Source of the DNA: Candidatus Eiseniibacteriota bacterium
GTDB taxonomy: Bacteria > Eisenbacteria > RBG-16-71-46
NCBI GenBank assembly: GCA_036505355.1
Contig: DASXTP010000105.1
Location: 2,613-66,612, forward strand
DNA: 64,000 nucleotides
Reading direction: 5' to 3'
Below are positions 41,442 to 52,033 of this stretch, in pieces. How positions within the stretch are numbered: position 1 is the first letter of the stretch; each line of letters begins with the position of its first letter. The translations under genes were made by a program, and so were the position numbers. The notes under the pieces are model-generated. The model made no database searches and was not told where the DNA came from. It worked only from the letters and a program-made list of their open reading frames with translations.

Positions 41442-44400
41442 CTAGCGATTGACGATCACGAACCGCCCTTCCGCGTGGGCCTTCTGGCGGTCACTGCTGG
41501 TCCCATTCGGGGCCCGCGGATTGACGTGCACGCGGAACAGGTAGACGCCGTTGGCGAGCACTCCACCCTCGTCGTCCCGCCCATCCCATGGGATCTGCAC
41601 CTGCCCCAGACCACCCAGCGCCTCCAAGGTCCGGACCAGTCGTCCCGACACCGTGTAGATCCGGAGCAGCACGTTGACCGAATCGCCCGGCGCATCCACC
41701 ACGAAGCTCCCTCCGGCACCCGGGCCTCTCGAAGCGGTGGGGTTGGGGAACAGCAGGGCCCGCTCGACCTTGAGCCCGGGATTGTCGGACACCTCGAAGT
41801 CGATGACGGCGGTGGAGCGGTGTTCCGCGGCGGCGATCCCGAACGCGAGATTGTCGGCGGCGCTCACGACGATGCGGTGGGGCCCGGAGCTCAGTCCGGG
41901 CAACTGGTAGGTGGCGGTGCCGGACTGGTACGAATCGGCTGCGTAGCGGAAGCTCGAGGTGATCTCCTGGCGCTGTCTCGAGCTCCCGTCGGTGGTGACG
42001 ACGATTCCGTTCTGCGGTTTGTGGCCGGTGATCAAAATCCCGTTCGGATCGAACAGGTCAACACGCAACACCGCGGTCGGTCGCACCGAGCGGGCGTTCC
42101 CCGGGAACGAGAGCGTGATGTGTGGGCCTTCACGGTCGTCGGCAGGCGGCGTGCCGACTGCGACCTCGAAGGGCAGACTGCCGGCGCCGTCCGAATCCGC
42201 CGGCGCGCCTTGGACGTAGGCGCGAGCCCGTGCGCGCGGACCGGCCACTCCATCCATGGGCACCACGAATCGGCCCTCGAACCGGCCGCCCGATAGGCGA
42301 ACGTCGCCACGGAACATCGGCGCCGCGCGAAACGGATACGTCTTGCAGACACCGAAGGCGCAGTCCGGGAGCGTGTCGACGGGCGCGGAATCCTCGATCA
42401 ACAGCGAGGCGCTGCCATCGAGCGGTATCGGCGCCCCCCCGGGCCGTTCGACCACCTGGCCACGGATCGTCAGGCGCCGCCCCCGGATCGCCTGACCCAC
42501 GGCGTTGCCAAACGAGTCCTCGAGCGCCACCTCGACGAACAGGCGCGGCAGGAGCAGGCGGGTCGCCGCGTCACCCATGAGCTGATACTTCTGGTTGTTG
42601 GTGCCGCCGGTCTTGGCAGCGAGCAGGGCCGTGCTGAGCGTGTTGAAATACTGACCACTGGCCGGCTCGCGCTCGAACACCTGGTGGAATAGCGCCTGGT
42701 TGAGCGAGGCGTTGATGTTGGTGAGCGCCAGCTCGGTGGCCGAAATCACGCCGATACAGCCACCGTTCGGATTGAGGATGAGCCGCTCCCCCAGGCTCTG
42801 CACCGTGGGGTCGTTGTACCGGCCGACGTCGCAGGAGGCGGCCACGAACACGCTCGGGCGCGTGGCGTTCACCATCCCTTCGGCATCGGTGTCGAGCAGC
42901 ACGCTCTCGTCGGCGATCTTGAACGGGCTGCCGTGGCCGATGAAATTGAACAACACCACCCCTTGGTTCACCTCGTTCAGGATGTCGTTCCGCGCGGCGG
43001 GCTTGGTGTCGTTTGGCCCGTCCGGGTAGCGGTGCAAGTACACATAACCGCGGTCGATATGGGCGGGCAGGGCGTCGCGGTCGAGGGCCGCGGTCTGCTC
43101 GACATGGAGCCAGGCGAGCGGGTCGGGGTCGGCGCCCGCCTTGTCGTCGTCGGCGATCAGCATCACGCGGTTGCGCCAGTCGCCGAGCGGCGCACCGCGT
43201 TCGTAGGCCACCAGCTTGCGCACGTAAGCCAGCGCCCCCGCCGCGTCGCGGGCCGGAATCCGACCACCCTGGAAGTCCGGGATCACCTGCGTCGGGTTGT
43301 CCACGTTGAGCAGCCAGTCATCGGTCGCGAACTGGCGCAGCACCAGGAAGTTGAGATCGAAGCCCCCCTCGTAGCTCGGCAGCAGCCCGGGCGAGAACCC
43401 GACCGGAGCACCTCCCTTGAAATTCTTGAAGTCGGAGGTGGCATCCCCGAGCAGGGTCACGAAGGTCGGCACCTTCCCCCAATGGAACGCCGCGTGCAGA
43501 AAGTTCCGGACCGCCCCGGGATCGGTACGGCCGCCGGAGAACTGGTCGTACACCGCCGACAGCGGCACCGAGACGGCCTCGTAGGGCGGATCCGATGCCA
43601 GCGGCAGGTGATCGCGGCGCCAGGCCAGCAGTTCTTGGGCGGCGAATTGCAGGCCGTCCAGGTAAATGATCAGGTAGTCGGCGCGGTGCGTGAGGTCGCG
43701 AAGGTTTTCGAGGCTCGAGCTGGGCGCGTCGAACACCTCGCTGTTCGGCAGCTTCACGATCCGCGACGCATCCGGCCAGTCAGTGACGATCCGGTATCGA
43801 CGAACCTCGCCTGCCCCGGCCTCAACCGGCCGAAAGCGTAGTCGCCACGCGCCCGGGCCGAGCTGATCGTAGCCGGGCGGAAGGACGGTGATTTCGATCG
43901 GTTCCAGAGGATTGGTGACATCGAACACCCGCGGCATCGAGTCGGGGCCCACGGTGAAGGGTCCGATCCGGTAGATGTCGTCGCCGGTCGTCGGCGGTGC
44001 CTCGAATTCGAGCTGGTTGCCTACCGGCTCGAAGCGCCGCTGATAGAAGAGGTCGAACCACGCCACCCCGACCCGGTCCACCCGCAGCGGGGCGAGCCGC
44101 GGATCGCGGTCGATGTAGTCCACCACCGTCATTTCCAGACGGGCGCCGCTCTCGGCCAGCCCGGTGAATGTGGTGTCGAACGTCTGGGCGCTCTGGAGCC
44201 CGGCACTGACATCGGCGCCGTTCCCGTTCCAGCCCCGGCGCGGGAAGCTCAACGACCCCAGGCGGACGTCCACATAGTGATCGAAGACTCCAGGACTCTT
44301 CGGGGTAGGCACGGCGGGCAGCTCCGGGAACGGCGGCAGGCCCCACAGCCGCAGCCTCAGCCGCGCCGGCTGGCTCGGATCGATCCCGGGGGCTGCAGCC

Positions 44401-45818
44401 TCCGGAGCGAAGGTTTGGCCGCGATTGAGGCTGGTCCAGAACCATTTCTCCCAGAACAGAGTGCTGCGCTGATAGCTGCCGTCGTCCTCAAGGCCCGTGA
44501 TCGGCGAGGCGGAGGGCCAATACTCGTTGTCCGCCTCGTGATGGAGGCGCTCCGGAAAGCTCAGGGGCGTCACGGCGACGGTCGTGTCCAGCAACGCCCG
44601 GGACCTGGACGCGATGCGCAGCGACGAGTCGGGCATCGGGTCTTCGGTCGTGGCGATCGTCAGGTAGTAGTAGTTGCGGGTCTCGTAGGGATGGTCGATG
44701 GAGGTCGTCTCGGGCTGGGAAGGGTCGTAGAAGTTCGCCCAGTCGCTGGGACCGAGGGCGAAGAAGTAGAAATACTCTTGGTTTTTGTTGAACTTCCCGT
44801 CGCCGTCTTCGACGAACTGGATGGCCACCTCCCGCAGGCCGCACGAGTCGCAGTAGCTGTCCTCGGGGAGGACCGGAAGTCCGGGCCAGGTGAAGAGCCT
44901 CAGACTGTCGAGGGGAGTGTTCAGGCTGTCGGCGAAGAGCTCGCTGTTCCGCACCTGGCCGAACTCGACCCGATAGAAGCCGGTCGTCGGGATGGCGATC
45001 TTCACCCACCGACGGCCGGCATAGAGGCTGGTATCGGGCACCACGCTCGCCATGCGCGGCGCGGCAGCCCGACTCGCCACCGGCGCGACCCGGGCCGGGC
45101 GCTCCGCCCCGCGCCAGGCCTTGCCCTGCTCGTAGTTGACCAGCACCGCACGGTACACGGACTCGAACGGGTCCGGAGGCGCAACCGGGCGACTTTCCTC
45201 GGTCCCGCCTTCCCATCGAACCTCGACCTCGACCCGGTGGTGGATGGTGAGGCGGCGATCGGCCGCGTCGTACTCCGCCGGGCGGACCGCGATGCGCGCG
45301 ACGCGCTGGTCCCTCATCCACGAGAGTCCGATCAAACGGGCGACCGAGGGTGGAGGACCGGTTGCGCGTCCGCCGGCGCCCCGCTCGCCGGTCGCAAGAG
45401 CCCAACCCGGCGTCGCTCCTCCGATCATCCCCTCCCCTCGCCCGGCCACGGAGGGGTTCGCGAGCAGGATGCCCTCGCGCACGTCGGTGGCGGCCACGCT
45501 GGCGGTGACTCGAACCGTCCCCTGAGGCGGCACGGCCACGCACAGCACCCGCTCCGGCAACCGCGATTCGCCCGGACCACCGCCTCGATCGTAACCTGGC
45601 AGCTCGAGCTGGAGCCCTTGGCCGGGAGACGGAACGGGCTCGAGTTGGGCCTCCGGGACGTCCACCAGCAGACGCACGCCCGTGGGAGAAGCGGCCAGCA
45701 GCCGCACGGCGCGGGGTTGGGCCTTGACCGTCGCAGGCGCCAGGCACAGCAGCACCAGGTGCGACCGCAGCGCGTGGCGCAGCCCCCGCCGGATCGACCA
45801 CGCCGGCCGAGGGCGCAC
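41442..45818 (-). CDS. porU: PorU-like C25 (gingipain-family) cysteine peptidase / T9SS sortase homolog with C-terminal sorting domain
   Basis: Signal peptide. C25 His/Cys dyad context (FNFIGHGSPF ... VFVAASCDVGRYND). Very large multi-Ig-like body. C-terminal LLFPNPTASRG...VLLRIYTVSGRLVRTL...GVYLFRVHV...GRFVIVNR sorting domain. Start (GTG 45818) uncertain. Confidence 0.65.
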   Translation of the reverse strand: MRPRPAWSIRRGLRHALRSHLVLLCLAPATVKAQPRAVRLLAASPTGVRLLVDVPEAQLEPVPSPGQGLQLELPGYDRGGGPGESRLPERVLCVAVPPQGTVRVTASVAATDVREGILLANPSVAGRGEGMIGGATPGWALATGERGAGGRATGPPPSVARLIGLSWMRDQRVARIAVRPAEYDAADRRLTIHHRVEVEVRWEGGTEESRPVAPPDPFESVYRAVLVNYEQGKAWRGAERPARVAPVASRAAAPRMASVVPDTSLYAGRRWVKIAIPTTGFYRVEFGQVRNSELFADSLNTPLDSLRLFTWPGLPVLPEDSYCDSCGLREVAIQFVEDGDGKFNKNQEYFYFFALGPSDWANFYDPSQPETTSIDHPYETRNYYYLTIATTEDPMPDSSLRIASRSRALLDTTVAVTPLSFPERLHHEADNEYWPSASPITGLEDDGSYQRSTLFWEKWFWTSLNRGQTFAPEAAAPGIDPSQPARLRLRLWGLPPFPELPAVPTPKSPGVFDHYVDVRLGSLSFPRRGWNGNGADVSAGLQSAQTFDTTFTGLAESGARLEMTVVDYIDRDPRLAPLRVDRVGVAWFDLFYQRRFEPVGNQLEFEAPPTTGDDIYRIGPFTVGPDSMPRVFDVTNPLEPIEITVLPPGYDQLGPGAWRLRFRPVEAGAGEVRRYRIVTDWPDASRIVKLPNSEVFDAPSSSLENLRDLTHRADYLIIYLDGLQFAAQELLAWRRDHLPLASDPPYEAVSVPLSAVYDQFSGGRTDPGAVRNFLHAAFHWGKVPTFVTLLGDATSDFKNFKGGAPVGFSPGLLPSYEGGFDLNFLVLRQFATDDWLLNVDNPTQVIPDFQGGRIPARDAAGALAYVRKLVAYERGAPLGDWRNRVMLIADDDKAGADPDPLAWLHVEQTAALDRDALPAHIDRGYVYLHRYPDGPNDTKPAARNDILNEVNQGVVLFNFIGHGSPFKIADESVLLDTDAEGMVNATRPSVFVAASCDVGRYNDPTVQSLGERLILNPNGGCIGVISATELALTNINASLNQALFHQVFEREPASGQYFNTLSTALLAAKTGGTNNQKYQLMGDAATRLLLPRLFVEVALEDSFGNAVGQAIRGRRLTIRGQVVERPGGAPIPLDGSASLLIEDSAPVDTLPDCAFGVCKTYPFRAAPMFRGDVRLSGGRFEGRFVVPMDGVAGPRARARAYVQGAPADSDGAGSLPFEVAVGTPPADDREGPHITLSFPGNARSVRPTAVLRVDLFDPNGILITGHKPQNGIVVTTDGSSRQRQEITSSFRYAADSYQSGTATYQLPGLSSGPHRIVVSAADNLAFGIAAAEHRSTAVIDFEVSDNPGLKVERALLFPNPTASRGPGAGGSFVVDAPGDSVNVLLRIYTVSGRLVRTLEALGGLGQVQIPWDGRDDEGGVLANGVYLFRVHVNPRAPNGTSSDRQKAHAEGRFVIVNR

Positions 45819-45835
45819 CGGTGAGGAGGGGCTCA

Positions 45836-46003
45836 GAACTTCTCGGCCTCCTCGATCAGGAAGTTCGGGATGTCGTCGACGACCTTGTACCGCAGCCGGC
45901 ACCGATGGCAGGTGAAGGTGTTGGCTTCGGCGCTGTACTCCAGGTCGCCCTTGCAGGCCGGACACACCAGCAACGCGAGCAGGTCAGGACTCAGGGCCAT
46001 GGG
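45836..46003 (-). CDS. UPF0434/Trm112-like zinc-ribbon protein (YcaR family)
   Basis: MALSPDLLALLVCPACKGDLEY...FTCHRCRLRYKVVDDIPNFLIEEAEKF: CPxC...CxxC ribbon with the conserved DGIP-like motif. 55 aa. Confidence 0.7.
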
Positions 46004-46259: not shown

Positions 46260-47243
46260 TCAAGCCGACCCGGCGCCAGCCTCTCCTGATGACTCGCGAA
46301 ACACTCCGATACCCCGATATTTTCGCAGTCGCCCTTCGACCAGCTCATCACCGGATACACCGATCATGGCGTCCAGGTGCCGCACAACCGCCGCCCCGAG
46401 CGTAGCGGCCGCCGCCTCGGCATCCCGGTGGGCACCGCCCAGCGGCTCGGGCAGCACGCCGTCGACGACGCCCAACCGCGCCAGGTCGGACGCGGTGAGC
46501 TTGAGAGCCTCCGCCGCCAACGCGCCCTTCTTGCCATCCCGCCACAGGATCGAGGCACACCCTTCGGGCGAGATCACCGAATAGATCGAGTTCTCGAACA
46601 TCAGCACCCGATCCGCCACCGCAATCGCCAGCGCCCCGCCGGACCCTCCTTCGCCGACGATCACGGTCACGATCGGCACCGGCAGGCGAGCCATCTCCCG
46701 CAAGTTGACCGCGATCGCCTCGGCCTGGCCGCGCTCCTCGGCTCCCAGTCCCGGGTAGGCTCCCGGGGTGTCGACCAGGGTGACCACCGGCATGCGGAAT
46801 CGCGCCGCGGTCTGCATCAGTCGGAGCGCCTTGCGATAGCCCTCGGGGTTCGCCATGCCGAAGCGCCGCTGCAGGTTTTCCTTCGTGTCGCGGCCCTTCT
46901 GGTGTCCGATCACCATCACCGGTCGGCCGTCCAGGAACGCCGGGCCGCCCACCACCGCCGGATCGTCGGCGAAGTGCCGGTCGCCGTGCAGCTCCATCCA
47001 TCCCTGGAAACAGCGATCGATGTAGTCGAGCGCGTAGGGCCGCCGCGGGTGGCGGGCGAGCTGGACTCGTTGGTACGCAGTCAGGTTCGCGTAGATCTCG
47101 CGACGTAGGGCCTCGGCCTTGCGCTCGAGATCGTTGACCTCCGCGCGTGAGTCCAGGCCTCCTTCGGCGGCCTGGGTCTTGAGCTCCTCGATCTTCTGCT
47201 CGAGCTCGAGGACCGGCTTCTCGAAGTCCAGCCAGACCGTCAT
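46260..47243 (-). CDS. accA: acetyl-CoA carboxylase carboxyltransferase alpha subunit
   Basis: MTVWLDFEKPVLELEQKIEELK N-terminus, oxyanion-hole region ...GGSGGALAI..., typical 327-aa length. ATGA overlap with dnaE, the conserved dnaE-accA arrangement. Confidence 0.9.
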   Translation of the reverse strand: MTVWLDFEKPVLELEQKIEELKTQAAEGGLDSRAEVNDLERKAEALRREIYANLTAYQRVQLARHPRRPYALDYIDRCFQGWMELHGDRHFADDPAVVGGPAFLDGRPVMVIGHQKGRDTKENLQRRFGMANPEGYRKALRLMQTAARFRMPVVTLVDTPGAYPGLGAEERGQAEAIAVNLREMARLPVPIVTVIVGEGGSGGALAIAVADRVLMFENSIYSVISPEGCASILWRDGKKGALAAEALKLTASDLARLGVVDGVLPEPLGGAHRDAEAAAATLGAAVVRHLDAMIGVSGDELVEGRLRKYRGIGVFRESSGEAGAGSA

Positions 47244-50200
47244 GTCGCCGCCTTTCCCCAGCGCACCCGAAGCTCCGGGAAGCGCTCCTGAAGCCGCGCG
47301 ATCAGCGCGTCGTCTTCGGCCACGCGGAAGCGCCGGGATCGCAGCGCCCGCCGCAGGTGGTTCGGCCCCACGATGTGTAGATACACCTCCGATTCCCCGG
47401 GGCACGACGACAGGACCTCGTCCACCCCGACCATCCAGTCCTCGCTGAGCTGCTCGGCTCGCATCTCGATGTGGAGGTGCCGGCGATAGGCGCGCTGCGC
47501 GTCTTCGTACGGACCCACTTCGGTGAGCAGCAACCGCACCGGCCGCTCCTCCCGCACCTCGACTCGACCGGTGGCCACCACGACGCGATCCGCCACCAGG
47601 TGCGAGCGCGCCGCCTCGAACGCATCCGGGAACACCGTGCATTCGATTCGCCCGCTCAAATCCTCGAGGGTGATCACGGCCATGCGTTTGCCGCCTCGCG
47701 TGGTGATCGGCTTGACGTCTCCGATCAAGCCACCCACCCGGACCTCGGAGCCGTCTTCGAGCTGGGCCGACTCCGCCACCGAGTGAGTCGTGATCCGCGA
47801 CAGCGACTCGCGCAGCGGCTCGAGCGGGTGCTCCGAGAAATAGAAACCCAACACCTCCTTCTCGCGCGTGCTGCGATCCCGCTGGGTCCACGCCGGAACG
47901 TCCGGCAGCGGAGGCGCGACCACCGCCACGCCCCCCTGATCGGTCCGCTCCCCGAACAGCAGCGATTGCCCGCTTTGCCGCTCGCGGCTCATCGCCGCGG
48001 CCAGCTCGAGCATCGGCCCGGCCGCGGCGAACAGGGCGCCGCGCTCGGGCCCCAGTCCGTCGCACGCCCCCGCCGCCACCAGGCTCTCCAGCACCCGGCG
48101 GTTCACCGCTCGACCCTCCAGCCGCCGTGCCAGGTCGAACAGGTCACGGAAGGGCCCGCCCGCCTCGCGCGCCGCCACCAGCACCTCCACCGCCGATTGC
48201 CCGACGTTGCGCACCGCGCCGAGACCAAACCGGATCTGCCCTTCCTCGAGCCCGAACGTCCACTCCGATCGGTTCACGTCGGGGGGCAGGAGTTCCAGGC
48301 CCAGCCGGCGGACCTCCTGGATCAGGGTCACGATCCGCGCGCTGTCGCCCATCTCGCTGGTCAGGGTGGCGGCCATGAACTCGGCCGGGAAGTTCGCCTT
48401 GAGGTAGGCGCACTGGTAGGCGAGGAGGGCGTAGGCGGCGGAATGGGAGTTGTGGACGACCAGGCCGTTGGCCACGAAATTGTGGTCTACCTCGACGGTG
48501 AGATCGTAAGTGTCTTCAAATCCGCGCGGCTCGATCGAGGTGACGCGGTCCCAGAAGACGTCGGAACAGGCTATGTCCATGAGACGACGAGAGTCGAAAA
48601 AGCGGGCGAGCCTCGCCAACGTGGAGCGTCGGAAGCCACGCTTGAGCCGTGAGCCGTTCCCCGTGGACTCGCGCATCGACACGCCCGATGCTTCCTCGAG
48701 TTCTCGCCACTTGAGCCCCAGCCTGACCCTCTCTTGCGCGACCCATCTCCTGATCTCGGGGGGGATCGTGTCCCGGCTCGTGCGATCAGGTGCCGCATCG
48801 GACACGCGGGCTCTGAGCTGTCCCACTTGTTTCTCTCGGCCGACGATGTGGGGCACAATCGTCTCGAGGAACGTCCGTACCGTATTCTCTCCTAGAAGGT
48901 TCACCGTGAAGCCCCGTTTGAGCCCGCCGCGGTATTTGAACTGTTTCCTGTGGATCCCGCTCACCATCCCGAGCCGCAGCAACAGGGTCTGAACGCCGCG
49001 GGCGAGGCCTTCCGACGAGGTTGCATGGAAGGGGACGGCATTCGTTCGGTTTGCAATGAAGCCGTCGCCGGCCCACAGCCGCCCGAGGAATATCTCGAGG
49101 TCACAATTACGGAGGAGAAAGACCTCACCCGGAATGCGTTTTTCCGTGGCCCTGCAACCGAGCACTCCCAACCGCTGCGCCCACTGGAACGCCCCCGAGC
49201 GTCGCACGGGAGCATCCAGCACCAGTGCGAGATTGCCTTCCGTTGTCGCGAGGTACTCGTCCGCGACCTCTCGAACTCGGCCTGCCGATGGACCCAGATT
49301 GGCGCAGACCTCCATCCTGCCGCCCGGTCGGGTATCGATCCTCGCAACCGTATCGGGAAAACAAGCGATCGCCCGAGCAAAGTCGTCCACCAGCGCCCGG
49401 TCATTGCCGTAGAAGTAGAGACTCGTGGGATGACAGGTGTTGCCCTCGGCGATCAAGCCTGCCAGCGTGATCAACTCGTGCCTGGGCCATGTCCGCCTCC
49501 CCGCTACTTGCAGTCGGCGGGCAACCGCGACCCGATCACCGAGCTTCAACTCGGCCAGATGCTTCCAGCCATCGAGTGTCCGGAACGGATGATTGGCCGT
49601 CGCCGTGATGCGCTTCCCCAGCGCGGTCTGGAGCTCATAGACGAGCTTGCGCCCGTTCCAGACCACGTCGGTAACCTCGCGTGGTCGTAATCGTAGATTC
49701 GCGTCCAGAGCGTGCACCTGGAACGGCCTGCGCTTTTCGAAAAGCGACCGCACGGTCGTCGTCTCACCGGTTGCCGCATGAATGACCTCGGTATCCCCCG
49801 TGAGACAGCGGTTGAACCCGTAGCCGGCGAACTTCTCCATGGTGGCGAAGATCTTCTCGGCCTTCGCCGCCGAGATCTTGCGGTGCCGGCAGCCTTCGAT
49901 GAACGCCAGGCGCTTGGCTTCCATTTCCTCGGGTCGCTTCTTCCCCATCGCCCTTCGCAGCTCGTCGGCTTGGGCCATGGAGAACCCTGCCAGCACGTTC
50001 GCGGCCTGCATGACCTGCTCTTGGTAGACGAACACGCCGTACGTGGCCTTGAGGATCGGCTCCAGGTCGGGGTGGTCGTAGGTCACCACCTTGCGGCCGT
50101 GCTTGCAGTCGATGAAGTAGGGGATGTTCTCCATCGGCCCGGGACGATAGAGCGCGTTCATCGCCACCAGGTCTTCGAACACGGTGGGCTTGAGCGGCCG

Positions 50201-52033
50201 CAGGTAGTCGCGCATGCCGCTCGACTCGAACTGGAACACGCCGACCGTGTCGGCACGCTGGAACACCTCGTAGGCCGGGGCGTCGTCCTTGGGCAAGTCC
50301 TGAAGATCGATCGACACGTTGTGATGGCGCTTCACCAGCTCGACCGCCCCGGCCAGCACCGACAGGGTGCGTAGCCCGAGGAAGTCCATTTTGAGCAGAC
50401 CCGCCTTCTCGACCGACTTCATGTCCCACTGCGTCGTGATCGACTCGTCCTTCTGACGGCACAGCGGCACGTAGTCGAGCAGCGGCCCGGGGGTGATCAG
50501 CACCCCCGCGGCGTGGGTCGAAGCGTGGCGCGCCAGGCCCTCCAGCACCCTGGCGCTGTGCAGCAGCTTGGCGTAGGCCGGTCCCCGCTCCGGAAGGTTC
50601 TTGAGCTCGGGCGACAGCTCGAGCGCCCGCTCGAGCGTCATGCCGAGCCCGTCCGGCACCAGCTTGGCGACCCGGTCCACGTCGGCGAACGCCAGGCCCA
50701 GGGCCCGGCCGACATCGCGCACCACTCCCTTGGCACCCATGGTGCCGAAGGTGATGATCTGCGTGACGTTGCCCTCGCCGTACTTCTGGCGCACGTACTC
50801 GATCACCTCGCCGCGCCGCAGGTCGTCGAAGTCGATGTCGATGTCGGGCATGCTCACGCGCTCGGGGTTCAGGAAGCGCTCGAAGATCAGGCCGTGGCGA
50901 AGCGGGTCGATGTCGGTGATGTGCAGGACGTACGCCACCAGCGAGCCCGCCACCGAGCCGCGTCCCGGGCCGACACCGATCCCGCGGCTGCGCGCGAAGG
51001 CGATGAAGTCGCGCACGATCAGGAAGTACGACGCGAAGCCCATGCGACAGATCACGTCGAGCTCGTAGTCGAGACGCTTGCGCACCTCGTCGCCGATCTC
51101 GGCCAAGCGCGTCTTCAGCTCCGCCGCGGCCAGCTCGCGCAGGTAATCCTCGGCGCTCGCGACGCCGGCCGGCAGCGGGAACTCTGGCAGCAAAGGCTTG
51201 CCGAAGTGGAGCTGCAGGTTGCAGCGCTCGGCGATCGCCACGGTGTTGCGGATGGCCTCGGGGAACTCGGCGAAGGCCGTCTTCATCTCGTCGGCCGACT
51301 TGAAGTACACCTGGTCGGTCTCGTAGCGGAGCCGGTTCGGATCGCTGACCGCCTTGCCGGTCTGGATGCACAGCAGCACGTCGTGGGCGTCGGCGTCCTC
51401 GTGACGGAGATAATGACAGTCGTTGGTGGCGACCAGCGGGATGCCGGTGCGCTTCGAGAGCGCGGCCGCGCGCTGGCGGATCTTCTCCTCGATCGCGAGC
51501 CCATGGTTCTGGATCTCGAGGAAGAAGTTCTCCGCCCCAAACAGCTCGCGGTAGAAGACCGCAGTCTGGAAAGCGCGCTCCTCGTTGTCCTCGGCGAGGT
51601 CGGCGCCGATCTCTCCCTTGGGACAAGCCGACAGCGCCAGCAGTCCCCCTGCATATCGCGCAAGGACCTCGTGGTCGACCCGCGGCTTGTAGTAGAAGCC
51701 CTCGAGAAAGGCGAGTGACGACAGGCGCATCAGGTTGCGGAACCCGGGCTCGTCGCGCGCCAGCAGCACCAAGTGGTGGGAGGTCTCCCGGGTTCGGTCC
51801 TGGCGCCGGCCGCGGGTGACGTAGGCCTCCATGCCCACGATCGGCTTGACCCCCGCGCGGCGCGCCTCCTGGTAGAACTCGACCGCGCCGAACAGCGCGC
51901 CGTGGTCGGTGAGCGCCAGGGCCGGCATCTTGAGCTCGGCGGCGCGCTCCACCATGCGCGGCAGCGGGCTCGCGCCGTCGAGCAGGGAATAGTCGCTGTG
52001 GTTGTGGAGGTGGACGAAGTCGGAATGTTGCAT
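47240..52033 (-). CDS. dnaE: DNA polymerase III alpha subunit (DnaE), interrupted in frame by a 453-aa intein
   Basis: N-terminal PHP domain (HLHNHSDYSLLDG), polymerase core, OB-fold tail. Host motif KFAGYGFNR / SHSAAYALLAYQ is split by the intein. Confidence 0.9.
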   Translation of the reverse strand: MQHSDFVHLHNHSDYSLLDGASPLPRMVERAAELKMPALALTDHGALFGAVEFYQEARRAGVKPIVGMEAYVTRGRRQDRTRETSHHLVLLARDEPGFRNLMRLSSLAFLEGFYYKPRVDHEVLARYAGGLLALSACPKGEIGADLAEDNEERAFQTAVFYRELFGAENFFLEIQNHGLAIEEKIRQRAAALSKRTGIPLVATNDCHYLRHEDADAHDVLLCIQTGKAVSDPNRLRYETDQVYFKSADEMKTAFAEFPEAIRNTVAIAERCNLQLHFGKPLLPEFPLPAGVASAEDYLRELAAAELKTRLAEIGDEVRKRLDYELDVICRMGFASYFLIVRDFIAFARSRGIGVGPGRGSVAGSLVAYVLHITDIDPLRHGLIFERFLNPERVSMPDIDIDFDDLRRGEVIEYVRQKYGEGNVTQIITFGTMGAKGVVRDVGRALGLAFADVDRVAKLVPDGLGMTLERALELSPELKNLPERGPAYAKLLHSARVLEGLARHASTHAAGVLITPGPLLDYVPLCRQKDESITTQWDMKSVEKAGLLKMDFLGLRTLSVLAGAVELVKRHHNVSIDLQDLPKDDAPAYEVFQRADTVGVFQFESSGMRDYLRPLKPTVFEDLVAMNALYRPGPMENIPYFIDCKHGRKVVTYDHPDLEPILKATYGVFVYQEQVMQAANVLAGFSMAQADELRRAMGKKRPEEMEAKRLAFIEGCRHRKISAAKAEKIFATMEKFAGYGFNRCLTGDTEVIHAATGETTTVRSLFEKRRPFQVHALDANLRLRPREVTDVVWNGRKLVYELQTALGKRITATANHPFRTLDGWKHLAELKLGDRVAVARRLQVAGRRTWPRHELITLAGLIAEGNTCHPTSLYFYGNDRALVDDFARAIACFPDTVARIDTRPGGRMEVCANLGPSAGRVREVADEYLATTEGNLALVLDAPVRRSGAFQWAQRLGVLGCRATEKRIPGEVFLLRNCDLEIFLGRLWAGDGFIANRTNAVPFHATSSEGLARGVQTLLLRLGMVSGIHRKQFKYRGGLKRGFTVNLLGENTVRTFLETIVPHIVGREKQVGQLRARVSDAAPDRTSRDTIPPEIRRWVAQERVRLGLKWRELEEASGVSMRESTGNGSRLKRGFRRSTLARLARFFDSRRLMDIACSDVFWDRVTSIEPRGFEDTYDLTVEVDHNFVANGLVVHNSHSAAYALLAYQCAYLKANFPAEFMAATLTSEMGDSARIVTLIQEVRRLGLELLPPDVNRSEWTFGLEEGQIRFGLGAVRNVGQSAVEVLVAAREAGGPFRDLFDLARRLEGRAVNRRVLESLVAAGACDGLGPERGALFAAAGPMLELAAAMSRERQSGQSLLFGERTDQGGVAVVAPPLPDVPAWTQRDRSTREKEVLGFYFSEHPLEPLRESLSRITTHSVAESAQLEDGSEVRVGGLIGDVKPITTRGGKRMAVITLEDLSGRIECTVFPDAFEAARSHLVADRVVVATGRVEVREERPVRLLLTEVGPYEDAQRAYRRHLHIEMRAEQLSEDWMVGVDEVLSSCPGESEVYLHIVGPNHLRRALRSRRFRVAEDDALIARLQERFPELRVRWGKAAT
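48449..49807 (-). mobile_element. DnaE intein with LAGLIDADG homing-endonuclease domain (coordinates +/-1 nt)
   Basis: Intein starts CLTGDTEV (block A Cys), ends ...DHNFVANGLVVHN followed by extein Ser (blocks F/G). Internal LAGLIAEGN and LWAGDGFI dodecapeptide motifs. 453 aa. Confidence 0.85.

Follow-up and report, generated by a model that had tools for sequence, protein, structure and literature searches.

A full-length intein with a predicted LAGLIDADG homing endonuclease in the dnaE gene of an Eisenbacteria-related bacterium

The insertion site in dnaE and its known inteins

Splicing of class-1 inteins proceeds by an N-S acyl shift, transesterification, asparagine cyclisation and then an O-N shift. 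In DnaE, the alpha subunit of DNA polymerase III, inteins have been described at several positions. The split DnaE intein of Npu has the native exteins AEY|CFNK (PMC3759424), and in its C-intein Asn36 is the last residue and Cys37 occupies the +1 position (PMC2677866). The InBase-derived Table S1 of PMC3359363 includes the Gob DnaE intein of Gemmata obscuriglobus (residues 762–1207, followed by S1208; cassette FNKSHTA) and the DnaE-2 inteins of Tth-HB8 and Tth-HB27 (residues 1239–1661, followed by S1662; cassette FNKSHAA). The same table places Tth DnaE-1 (LRR|SMGK), Ter DnaE-2 (LRR|CMGK) and Ter DnaE-1 (GVL|CYQE) at other sites. Here, an intein of 453 amino acids (aa) was examined, which is encoded within a dnaE gene at positions 48449–49807 of a 64,000-nucleotide stretch of DNA from a Candidatus Eiseniibacteriota bacterium (GenBank assembly GCA_036505355.1; contig DASXTP010000105.1). 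The whole of this stretch is referred to as the window.

Translation of the reverse strand between positions 48449 and 49807 gave 453 stop-free codons running from CLTGDTEV to NGLVVHN, in frame within an open reading frame (ORF) of 1597 aa plus stop codon (positions 47240–52033, reverse strand; from the ORF list and its translation), of which the intein forms residues 743–1195. The insertion lies between ...FAGYGFNR and SHSAAYAL..., with no shift of frame at either junction, and the end of the intein reads ...TYDLTVEVDHNFVANGLVVHN|S, with a penultimate His, a terminal Asn and Ser at the +1 position. An earlier note on this DNA had described a 453-aa insert that starts with Cys and ends in VVHN before an extein Ser, and the translation bore this out, the strand being the minus strand. 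The features of a class-1 intein were all present (Cys1, the TxxH motif of block B, blocks F and G, the His-Asn end and Ser +1). With a probability of about 0.88, the element is a class-1 intein, contiguous and full-length, in which a two-motif LAGLIDADG homing endonuclease is nested; it is predicted to splice and to home, and lies in the dnaE gene of an Eisenbacteria-related bacterium.

The identification of the host gene as dnaE, also proposed in the earlier note, was supported by a match of 1403 bits (cut-off 1002) to the NCBIfam equivalog profile NF004226 (DNA polymerase III subunit alpha). The Pfam domains PHP, DNA_pol3_alpha, DNA_pol3_finger, HHH_6 and OB fold were found in the ORF in the usual order. 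The N-extein (residues 1–742; positions 49808–52033, reverse strand) aligned with positions 2–751 of the NF004226 profile, and the C-extein (residues 1196–1597 plus stop codon; positions 47240–48448, reverse strand) starts at the +1 Ser and includes the HHH_6 and OB-fold domains.

The site lies in GYGFN(K/R)|SHS, a conserved motif of the fingers region that reads FNR|SHS in the window. When FAEY-CFNK-SHS was aligned with the window sequence, the window junction fell downstream of the split-DnaE site by four residues, and a C-extein starting SHAAS aligned with NF005616, the profile of the split DnaE C-half, from position 41, which corresponds to 36 intein residues plus CFNK. The earlier note had given the same spacing and had regarded the site as a distinct one. 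The spacing stood, but the site is distinct only relative to the split intein; it was already known, as Gob DnaE and Tth DnaE-2 have been catalogued at the same position, and it is very widely occupied. By its insertion point, compared with an intein catalogue as the note had suggested, the window intein is a further member of the Gob DnaE/Tth DnaE-2 site allele family, and this insertion point has been catalogued since the InBase era.

The Gob DnaE intein shares with the window intein the host protein, the insertion point (FNK|SHTA compared with FNR|SHSA), the architecture and Ser +1, and has 446 aa compared with 453 aa. However, its host belongs to the Planctomycetota, whereas the window derives from an Eisenbacteria-like bacterium. 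An allele from Gemmata sp. IIL30 (L070; 446 aa; FNK|C...HN|SHTAAYAQIG), which matches Gob DnaE in size and junctions, was 58.7% identical to the window in the intein and 40.6% identical in the exteins; about 41% of the residues of a Gob-type intein are therefore unlike those in the window. The DnaE-2 inteins of Tth-HB8 and Tth-HB27, judged by their table entry, resemble the window intein in being full-length (423 aa), in having Ser at +1 and in lying at the same insertion point (FNK|SHAA). The cyanobacterial split DnaE inteins (Ssp and Npu) have in common with it the host protein, the stretch of the polymerase and class-1 chemistry with Cys1, but they are encoded by two genes, are without an endonuclease and have Cys at +1, whereas the window carries one uninterrupted ORF with Ser +1.

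Splicing blocks, endonuclease and predicted structure

When the insert alone was compared with Pfam, it scored 79.4 bits (E 3.4e-22) against a cut-off of 35.8 for Intein_splicing and, over intein residues 240–317, matched LAGLIDADG_3 (PF14528; E 9.6e-11; 42.2 bits, cut-off 22.5). The NCBIfam profiles TIGR01445 intein_Nterm (43.5 bits) and TIGR01443 intein_Cterm (30.5 bits, cut-off 15.6) were also matched above their cut-offs, and the likeness to an intein is not due to chance. The best sequence match in the PDB was the Ssp (Synechocystis) DnaB mini-intein 1mi8 (E 1.4e-27, ~39% identity), which aligned in two pieces (query residues 2–111 and 411–452) that flank the endonuclease and represent both Hint halves. 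In comparison with the DnaB intein (1e-27), the matches to the split DnaE inteins 2keq and 4kl5 were marginal (E ~1e-3).

The splicing blocks A, B, F and G, whose alignment the earlier note had put forward as a further check, could be aligned and their key residues were found to be conserved across 77 alleles. All of the features that follow are encoded on the reverse strand. Block A (positions 49769–49807) is covered by the TIGR01445 match and includes Cys1, the first nucleophile. Block B (GKRITATANHPF; positions 49583–49618) contains T70-A-N-H73, corresponding to TxxH, and aligned with 1mi8. Block F (SDVFWDRVTSIEPRGFEDTYDLTVEV; positions 48488–48565), which includes W419 and the conserved D435, aligned with residues 114–155 of 1mi8, and block G (DHNFVANGLVVHN; positions 48446–48487 when the codon for Ser +1 is included) is covered by the TIGR01443 match.

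Both of the endonuclease motifs pointed out previously (LAGLIAEGN and LWAGDGFI) were present. Motif 1 (block C, ITLAGLIAEGN; positions 49439–49471) spans intein residues 113–123 and motif 2 (block E, IFLGRLWAGDGFI; positions 49055–49093) spans residues 239–251, and helices were found at residues 109–120 and 234–248, respectively, in the structural model described below. Each motif ends in an acidic residue followed by Gly (E121-G122 and D248-G249), and E121 (LAGLIAE-G) and D248 (LWAGD-G), which are at the usual places in LAGLIDADG enzymes, are the predicted catalytic acids. The sequence ATEKRIP (positions 49130–49150), which we take to be block D of the intein endonuclease motifs, includes the conserved Lys223 and P226.

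A helical module connects the endonuclease to block F (intein residues 341–413; positions 48569–48787), and in the model it contains helices at residues 350–363, 367–374, 378–381, 394–404 and 407–413. The module gave a weak match to HTH_3 (E 0.048) that was below the cut-off, and it may be an accessory helix-turn-helix (HTH) DNA-binding domain. Some alleles, such as P0011 and P0036, lack it.

An AlphaFold model of the intein, built from an alignment of eight sequences, had a mean predicted local distance difference test score (pLDDT) of 87.7 and a predicted template modelling score (pTM) of 0.87, and predicts a Hint fold with a nested endonuclease fold. The top matches in the PDB identified using Foldseek were full-length endonuclease inteins, namely TliVMA (7qss; E 2e-21, template modelling (TM) score 0.68), PI-PfuI (1dq3), PI-TkoII (2cw7) and PI-SceI (1vde). 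These four share with the window intein a double LAGLIDADG domain nested within a Hint domain, and the matches extended over the whole length (E 2e-21 to 2e-11, TM 0.5–0.7). However, they share only 12–18% sequence identity with it, come from archaeal or yeast hosts and carry other extra DNA-binding modules. The free-standing enzymes I-Tsp061I and I-DmoI matched the nuclease part of the model, and the Ssp DnaB and Mtu RecA mini-inteins superposed on the Hint part with a root mean square deviation of ~1 Å (for Ssp DnaB, over the N-terminal Hint half).

The Ssp DnaB intein (1mi8) and other DnaB inteins are the nearest solved relatives of the splicing domain, with Ser +1 and an endonuclease of the same family, and DnaB inteins form the next tier of database matches (30–35% identity over the full length). 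However, they are found in another host protein and at another site, and hence are not allelic to the window intein. The Pfam and NCBIfam matches, the PDB sequence match and the AlphaFold model agree in describing a full-length intein with a LAGLIDADG endonuclease, as had been proposed from the sequence.

Conservation was assessed in an alignment of the window intein with 76 alleles from genome sequences, giving the total of 77. The residues C1, T70, H73, E121, D435, H452 and N453 were invariant (77/77), as was Cys125, and W419 was conserved or invariant. G122 was present in 76 of the 77 sequences, and K223 as well as D248 and G249 in 75. Among the 99 columns conserved at 90% or more, the window intein had the consensus residue in 98. 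The sole departure was residue 261 (positions 49025–49027, reverse strand), which is His in place of a Tyr found in 97% of the 77 sequences (PFHATSS compared with P(Y/F)YATSS). Measured against the window intein, the alleles averaged 55% identity in the N-terminal Hint part, 52% in both the endonuclease and the helical module, and 72% in the C-terminal Hint part, indicating that the endonuclease is constrained no less than the N-terminal Hint part.

Empty sites, host range and movement of the intein

The N-extein was searched against 1.84 billion cluster representatives. Most of the nearest DnaE representatives were 1140–1230 aa in length with a contiguous GFNKSH (e.g. P0121, 58% identity), and approximately one tenth were 1450–1711 aa, with inteins either at the window site or elsewhere. 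A search using 400 residues of the spliced junction found a contiguous GFNxSH in 107 of 119 matches. The closest of these were 74–82% identical, gapless over the junction and intein-free, and two of the close intein-free matches were named Candidatus Eiseniibacteriota or Eisenbacteria. The comparison with intein-free DnaE and the search for an empty site in relatives, both of which the earlier note had recommended, therefore gave a positive answer, and intein-free targets are present in the host's own clade.

The joined dnaE site predicted for an intein-free allele is GAGAAGTTCGCCGGCTACGGGTTCAACCGC|TCCCATTCCGCCGCCTACGCC. The predicted spliced sequence of the window was found exactly in P0278, P0284 and P0285, and the DNA of an empty allele (L082) was identical to the 60-bp joined flanks of the window, GAGAAGTTCGCCGGCTACGGGTTCAACCGC-TCCCATTCCGCCGCCTACGCCCTCCTCGCC, at 51 of 60 nucleotides (nt). 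As the closest homologues are intein-free at the junction, the insert is not a normal domain of DnaE. The junction was also found to vary among intein-free alleles of Eisenbacteria-like origin, reading FNR|AHS in P0273, FNK|GHS in P0277 and FNA|SH in P0274, P0279 and P0282. Judging from these residues, an allele with Ala or Gly instead of Ser at +1 would not support splicing, and such alleles may be unable to tolerate the intein.

A protein search with the intein, in which nothing longer than ~800 aa was listed, returned ~50 fragments of DnaE that share the junctions YGFNK|C...HN|SHS, and full-length precursors were examined via genome loci and the representative library. When the genomes of GTDB r232, one for each species, were scanned using an alignment of the intein only as the query, at least 562 related stretches were detected, and the best 80 loci were examined. 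An uninterrupted intein was located at exactly YGFN(K/R)|C...HN|SH(S/T/A) in 76 of these 80 loci, with lengths of 386–464 aa (428–464 aa in 75 of them and 386 aa in L066). The named hosts include Eisenbacteria, Acidobacteriota, Planctomycetota, Myxococcota, Gammaproteobacteria, Betaproteobacteria, Bacteroidota, Desulfobulbaceae, Chloroflexota, Omnitrophota, Methylomirabilota and Actinomycetota, and the hosts of same-site inteins span more than 10 phyla. The allele family is very common in genomes, metagenome-assembled ones included. Isolate genomes are among them, those of Halorhodospira neutriphila DSM 15116, Stieleria magnilauensis TBK1r and Gemmata sp. IIL30.

The same FNK|SHS site holds mini-inteins, or inteins whose endonuclease is degraded, in P0080 (169 aa), P0083 (213 aa), P0041 (230 aa) and P0135. 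The N-extein of P0080 is almost identical to that of the window, and a close relative therefore has a version without the endonuclease. The mini-inteins at the same site show that decay does happen in the family, and the endonuclease-free version in a close relative fits a homing cycle.

On the basis of extein identity, the window is placed with genomes of Candidatus Eisenbacteria (L003, 77.5%; L038, 74.1%; L002, 73.3%; L055, 70.9%; L047, 68.4%). The inteins in these genomes were only 51–66% identical to that in the window, which is below the values for the exteins. Outside this Eisenbacteria-like clade, the exteins were 39–49% and the inteins 42–62% identical to those of the window, as in a member of the Planctomycetota (L009; intein 62.5%, extein 46.6%) and a Competibacter (L011; intein 61.8%, extein 45.3%). 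Intein and extein identities were not correlated (Spearman rho -0.06). As the intein diverges more than the host gene within the clade, yet less than it across phyla, horizontal movement is indicated.

The G+C content at third codon positions (GC3) was 0.744 in the intein, compared with 0.925 in the N-extein and 0.881 in the C-extein, and the step fell exactly at the junctions. However, the intein had a lower GC3 than the exteins in 74 of 76 related loci (median difference -0.10), while tracking the G+C content of the host. The step was therefore dropped as proof of a recent acquisition and was retained as support for a separate history. The lag across the family could reflect either ongoing transfer or relaxed codon selection.

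Members of the same family were also seen in DnaE2, the error-prone polymerase (P0026, P0027, P0028, P0036 and P0033). These inteins are ~40% identical to that of the window, are 392–423 aa in length and occupy the homologous codon (YGFPE|C...HN|SHAASFAL). The C-exteins of P0027 and P0028 matched NF004225 ('error-prone DNA polymerase') from profile position 739 with E values of 1e-97 and 5e-101, respectively, compared with 3e-23 and 1e-32 for DnaE1. Their presence in DnaE2 suggests spread between paralogues.

What can be called mildly notable applies at the level of the family only, namely its breadth across phyla, the occupancy of DnaE2 and the conserved extra helical module. A broader history, which we put forward as doubtful, is that a single intein lineage with an HTH-like module has moved repeatedly among more than 10 phyla and between DnaE1 and DnaE2 at the homologous codon, and that the window copy is a fairly recent, homing-competent arrival with empty alleles persisting. 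If the module relaxes target recognition, this could explain the unusually broad range of hosts and paralogues. The full-length, mini and empty alleles, together with the occupancy of DnaE1 and DnaE2, form a natural series for the study of the homing cycle, and the family is a possible source of Ser +1 inteins for protein engineering.

For annotation, the gene in the window should be treated as a single dnaE that bears an intein, rather than as a 'LAGLIDADG endonuclease' alongside a polymerase that is fused or fragmented. In Thiothrix (the P0038 cluster, comprising T. subterranea, T. litoralis and Ca. T. putei), an intein-bearing dnaE has been annotated as fragments of 573, 647, 560 and 424 aa, under the names 'helix-hairpin-helix domain-containing protein' or 'LAGLIDADG family homing endonuclease'. 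P0038 loses the reading frame inside the endonuclease, and an intact member of 1625 aa exists (P0402); the fragments could be due either to frameshift errors or to real breakage of the gene.

Other intein sites were observed in the DnaE homologues P0155, P0198, P0202, P0224 and P0245. These sites include LRR|C...HN|SMGKK, which is the Tth DnaE-1 site, and YG(V/I)x|C...HN|C(V)YQEQ, which is near the Ter DnaE-1 site, as well as GPGRG|C...HN|SAAGS and FQFES|C...HN|SGM. Thermus DnaE has a second intein (DnaE-1, LRR|SMGK), whereas the dnaE gene in the window is without it, and a tblastn search for a second copy of the intein found none in the window.

Splicing and homing, alternative explanations and neighbouring genes

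Under the proposed mechanism, the 1597-aa precursor would be translated as a single chain and an N-S acyl shift would occur at Cys1, assisted by T70 and H73. Transesterification onto the hydroxyl of Ser +1, cyclisation of Asn453 with the assistance of H452, and an O-N shift would then yield a DnaE of 1144 aa with the native GYGFNRSHS and a free intein of 453 aa. The free intein would act as a site-specific endonuclease that cuts dnaE alleles lacking the intein, across the joined site, and the intein would be copied into the cut allele by recombinational repair (homing). Homing would account for the patchy distribution of the family across phyla. Splicing of the window intein is very likely, as dnaE is essential and all of the catalytic residues are in place. 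It is plausible but uncertain that the endonuclease of this copy is still active, the uncertainty being due to the replacement of Tyr261 by His.

Several points weigh against an intein that both splices and homes. The replacement at residue 261 is in the endonuclease and could weaken the nuclease, and the GC3 deficit, being shared by the family, does not specifically show that the intein reached this genome recently. A tblastn search for a phage carrier among 50,697 phage records retrieved only distant terminase and DnaB inteins (at most 26% full-length identity), and a scan of IMG/VR for a viral carrier retrieved only three distant loci (at most 34%); neither a phage nor a plasmid was identified as a vector. 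Splicing and cleavage are, moreover, both deduced from the sequence.

The change at this otherwise 97% conserved Tyr, together with the mini-inteins at the same site (P0080, P0041, P0083 and P0135), leaves a considerable, though clearly smaller, chance of an intein that splices but has an inactive endonuclease. Such an intein would be a vertically inherited passenger late in the homing cycle, kept because its imprecise loss would kill an essential polymerase, and the presence of the intein in five Eisenbacteria-like genomes is compatible with some vertical persistence. However, both predicted catalytic acids (E121 and D248), the Lys of block D and all but one of the 99 conserved positions are intact, the sequence contains no stop codon or frameshift, and the endonuclease is conserved as much as the splicing domain. 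Intein-free alleles also coexist with the intein in the same clade, and it is in such a situation that nuclease activity is maintained. It is improbable that the intein serves as a conditional switch, in which splicing, and hence the supply of replicase, responds to redox, metals or temperature as reported for some DnaB and RadA inteins. The location in a conserved motif of an essential enzyme, the Cys1 nucleophile and the invariant Cys125 would suit such a role, and the closest relatives are DnaB inteins, for some of which conditional splicing has been described (PMC7360933, PMC6195587). However, no sequence feature specific to regulation was seen in the intein, and a patchy distribution, intein-free closest relatives and horizontal spread are the marks of a selfish element and not of a conserved host regulator.

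Retention of the insert in the mature polymerase, either as an ordinary DnaE insertion domain specific to the lineage or as a non-splicing Hint-like (bacterial intein-like, BIL) domain, is extremely unlikely. The one point in its favour is that some polymerases have large insertions, whereas all of the residues that define an intein are present, including the terminal His-Asn and Ser +1, and the insert breaks a motif that is contiguous elsewhere. The earlier note had considered that the region might be a normal domain of all DnaE homologues, and it was found to be absent from most of them, including the closest. An assembly chimera has an equally slight chance of explaining the insert. Although the window comes from a metagenome contig, both junctions are perfectly in frame, and the same architecture at the same codon was found in 76 independent assemblies, isolate genomes included. 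A splicing intein with a homing endonuclease remains the preferred explanation.

The window falls within contig Ga0376053_0000089 (100,686 bp) of the Joint Genome Institute (JGI) metagenome 3300036864, in whose gene call the same 1597-aa gene is present, with accA after it. Downstream of accA in the window is a very large ORF (positions 41442–45965, reverse strand; 1507 aa in the ORF list and 1437 aa in the JGI call), which encodes Peptidase_C25 and FlgD_ig domains and has no connection with the intein. The accA gene itself (327 aa in the JGI call; positions 46260–47243, reverse strand) starts at position 47243 and shares 4 nt (ATGA) with the stop codon of dnaE, an overlap that suggests translational coupling of the two genes.

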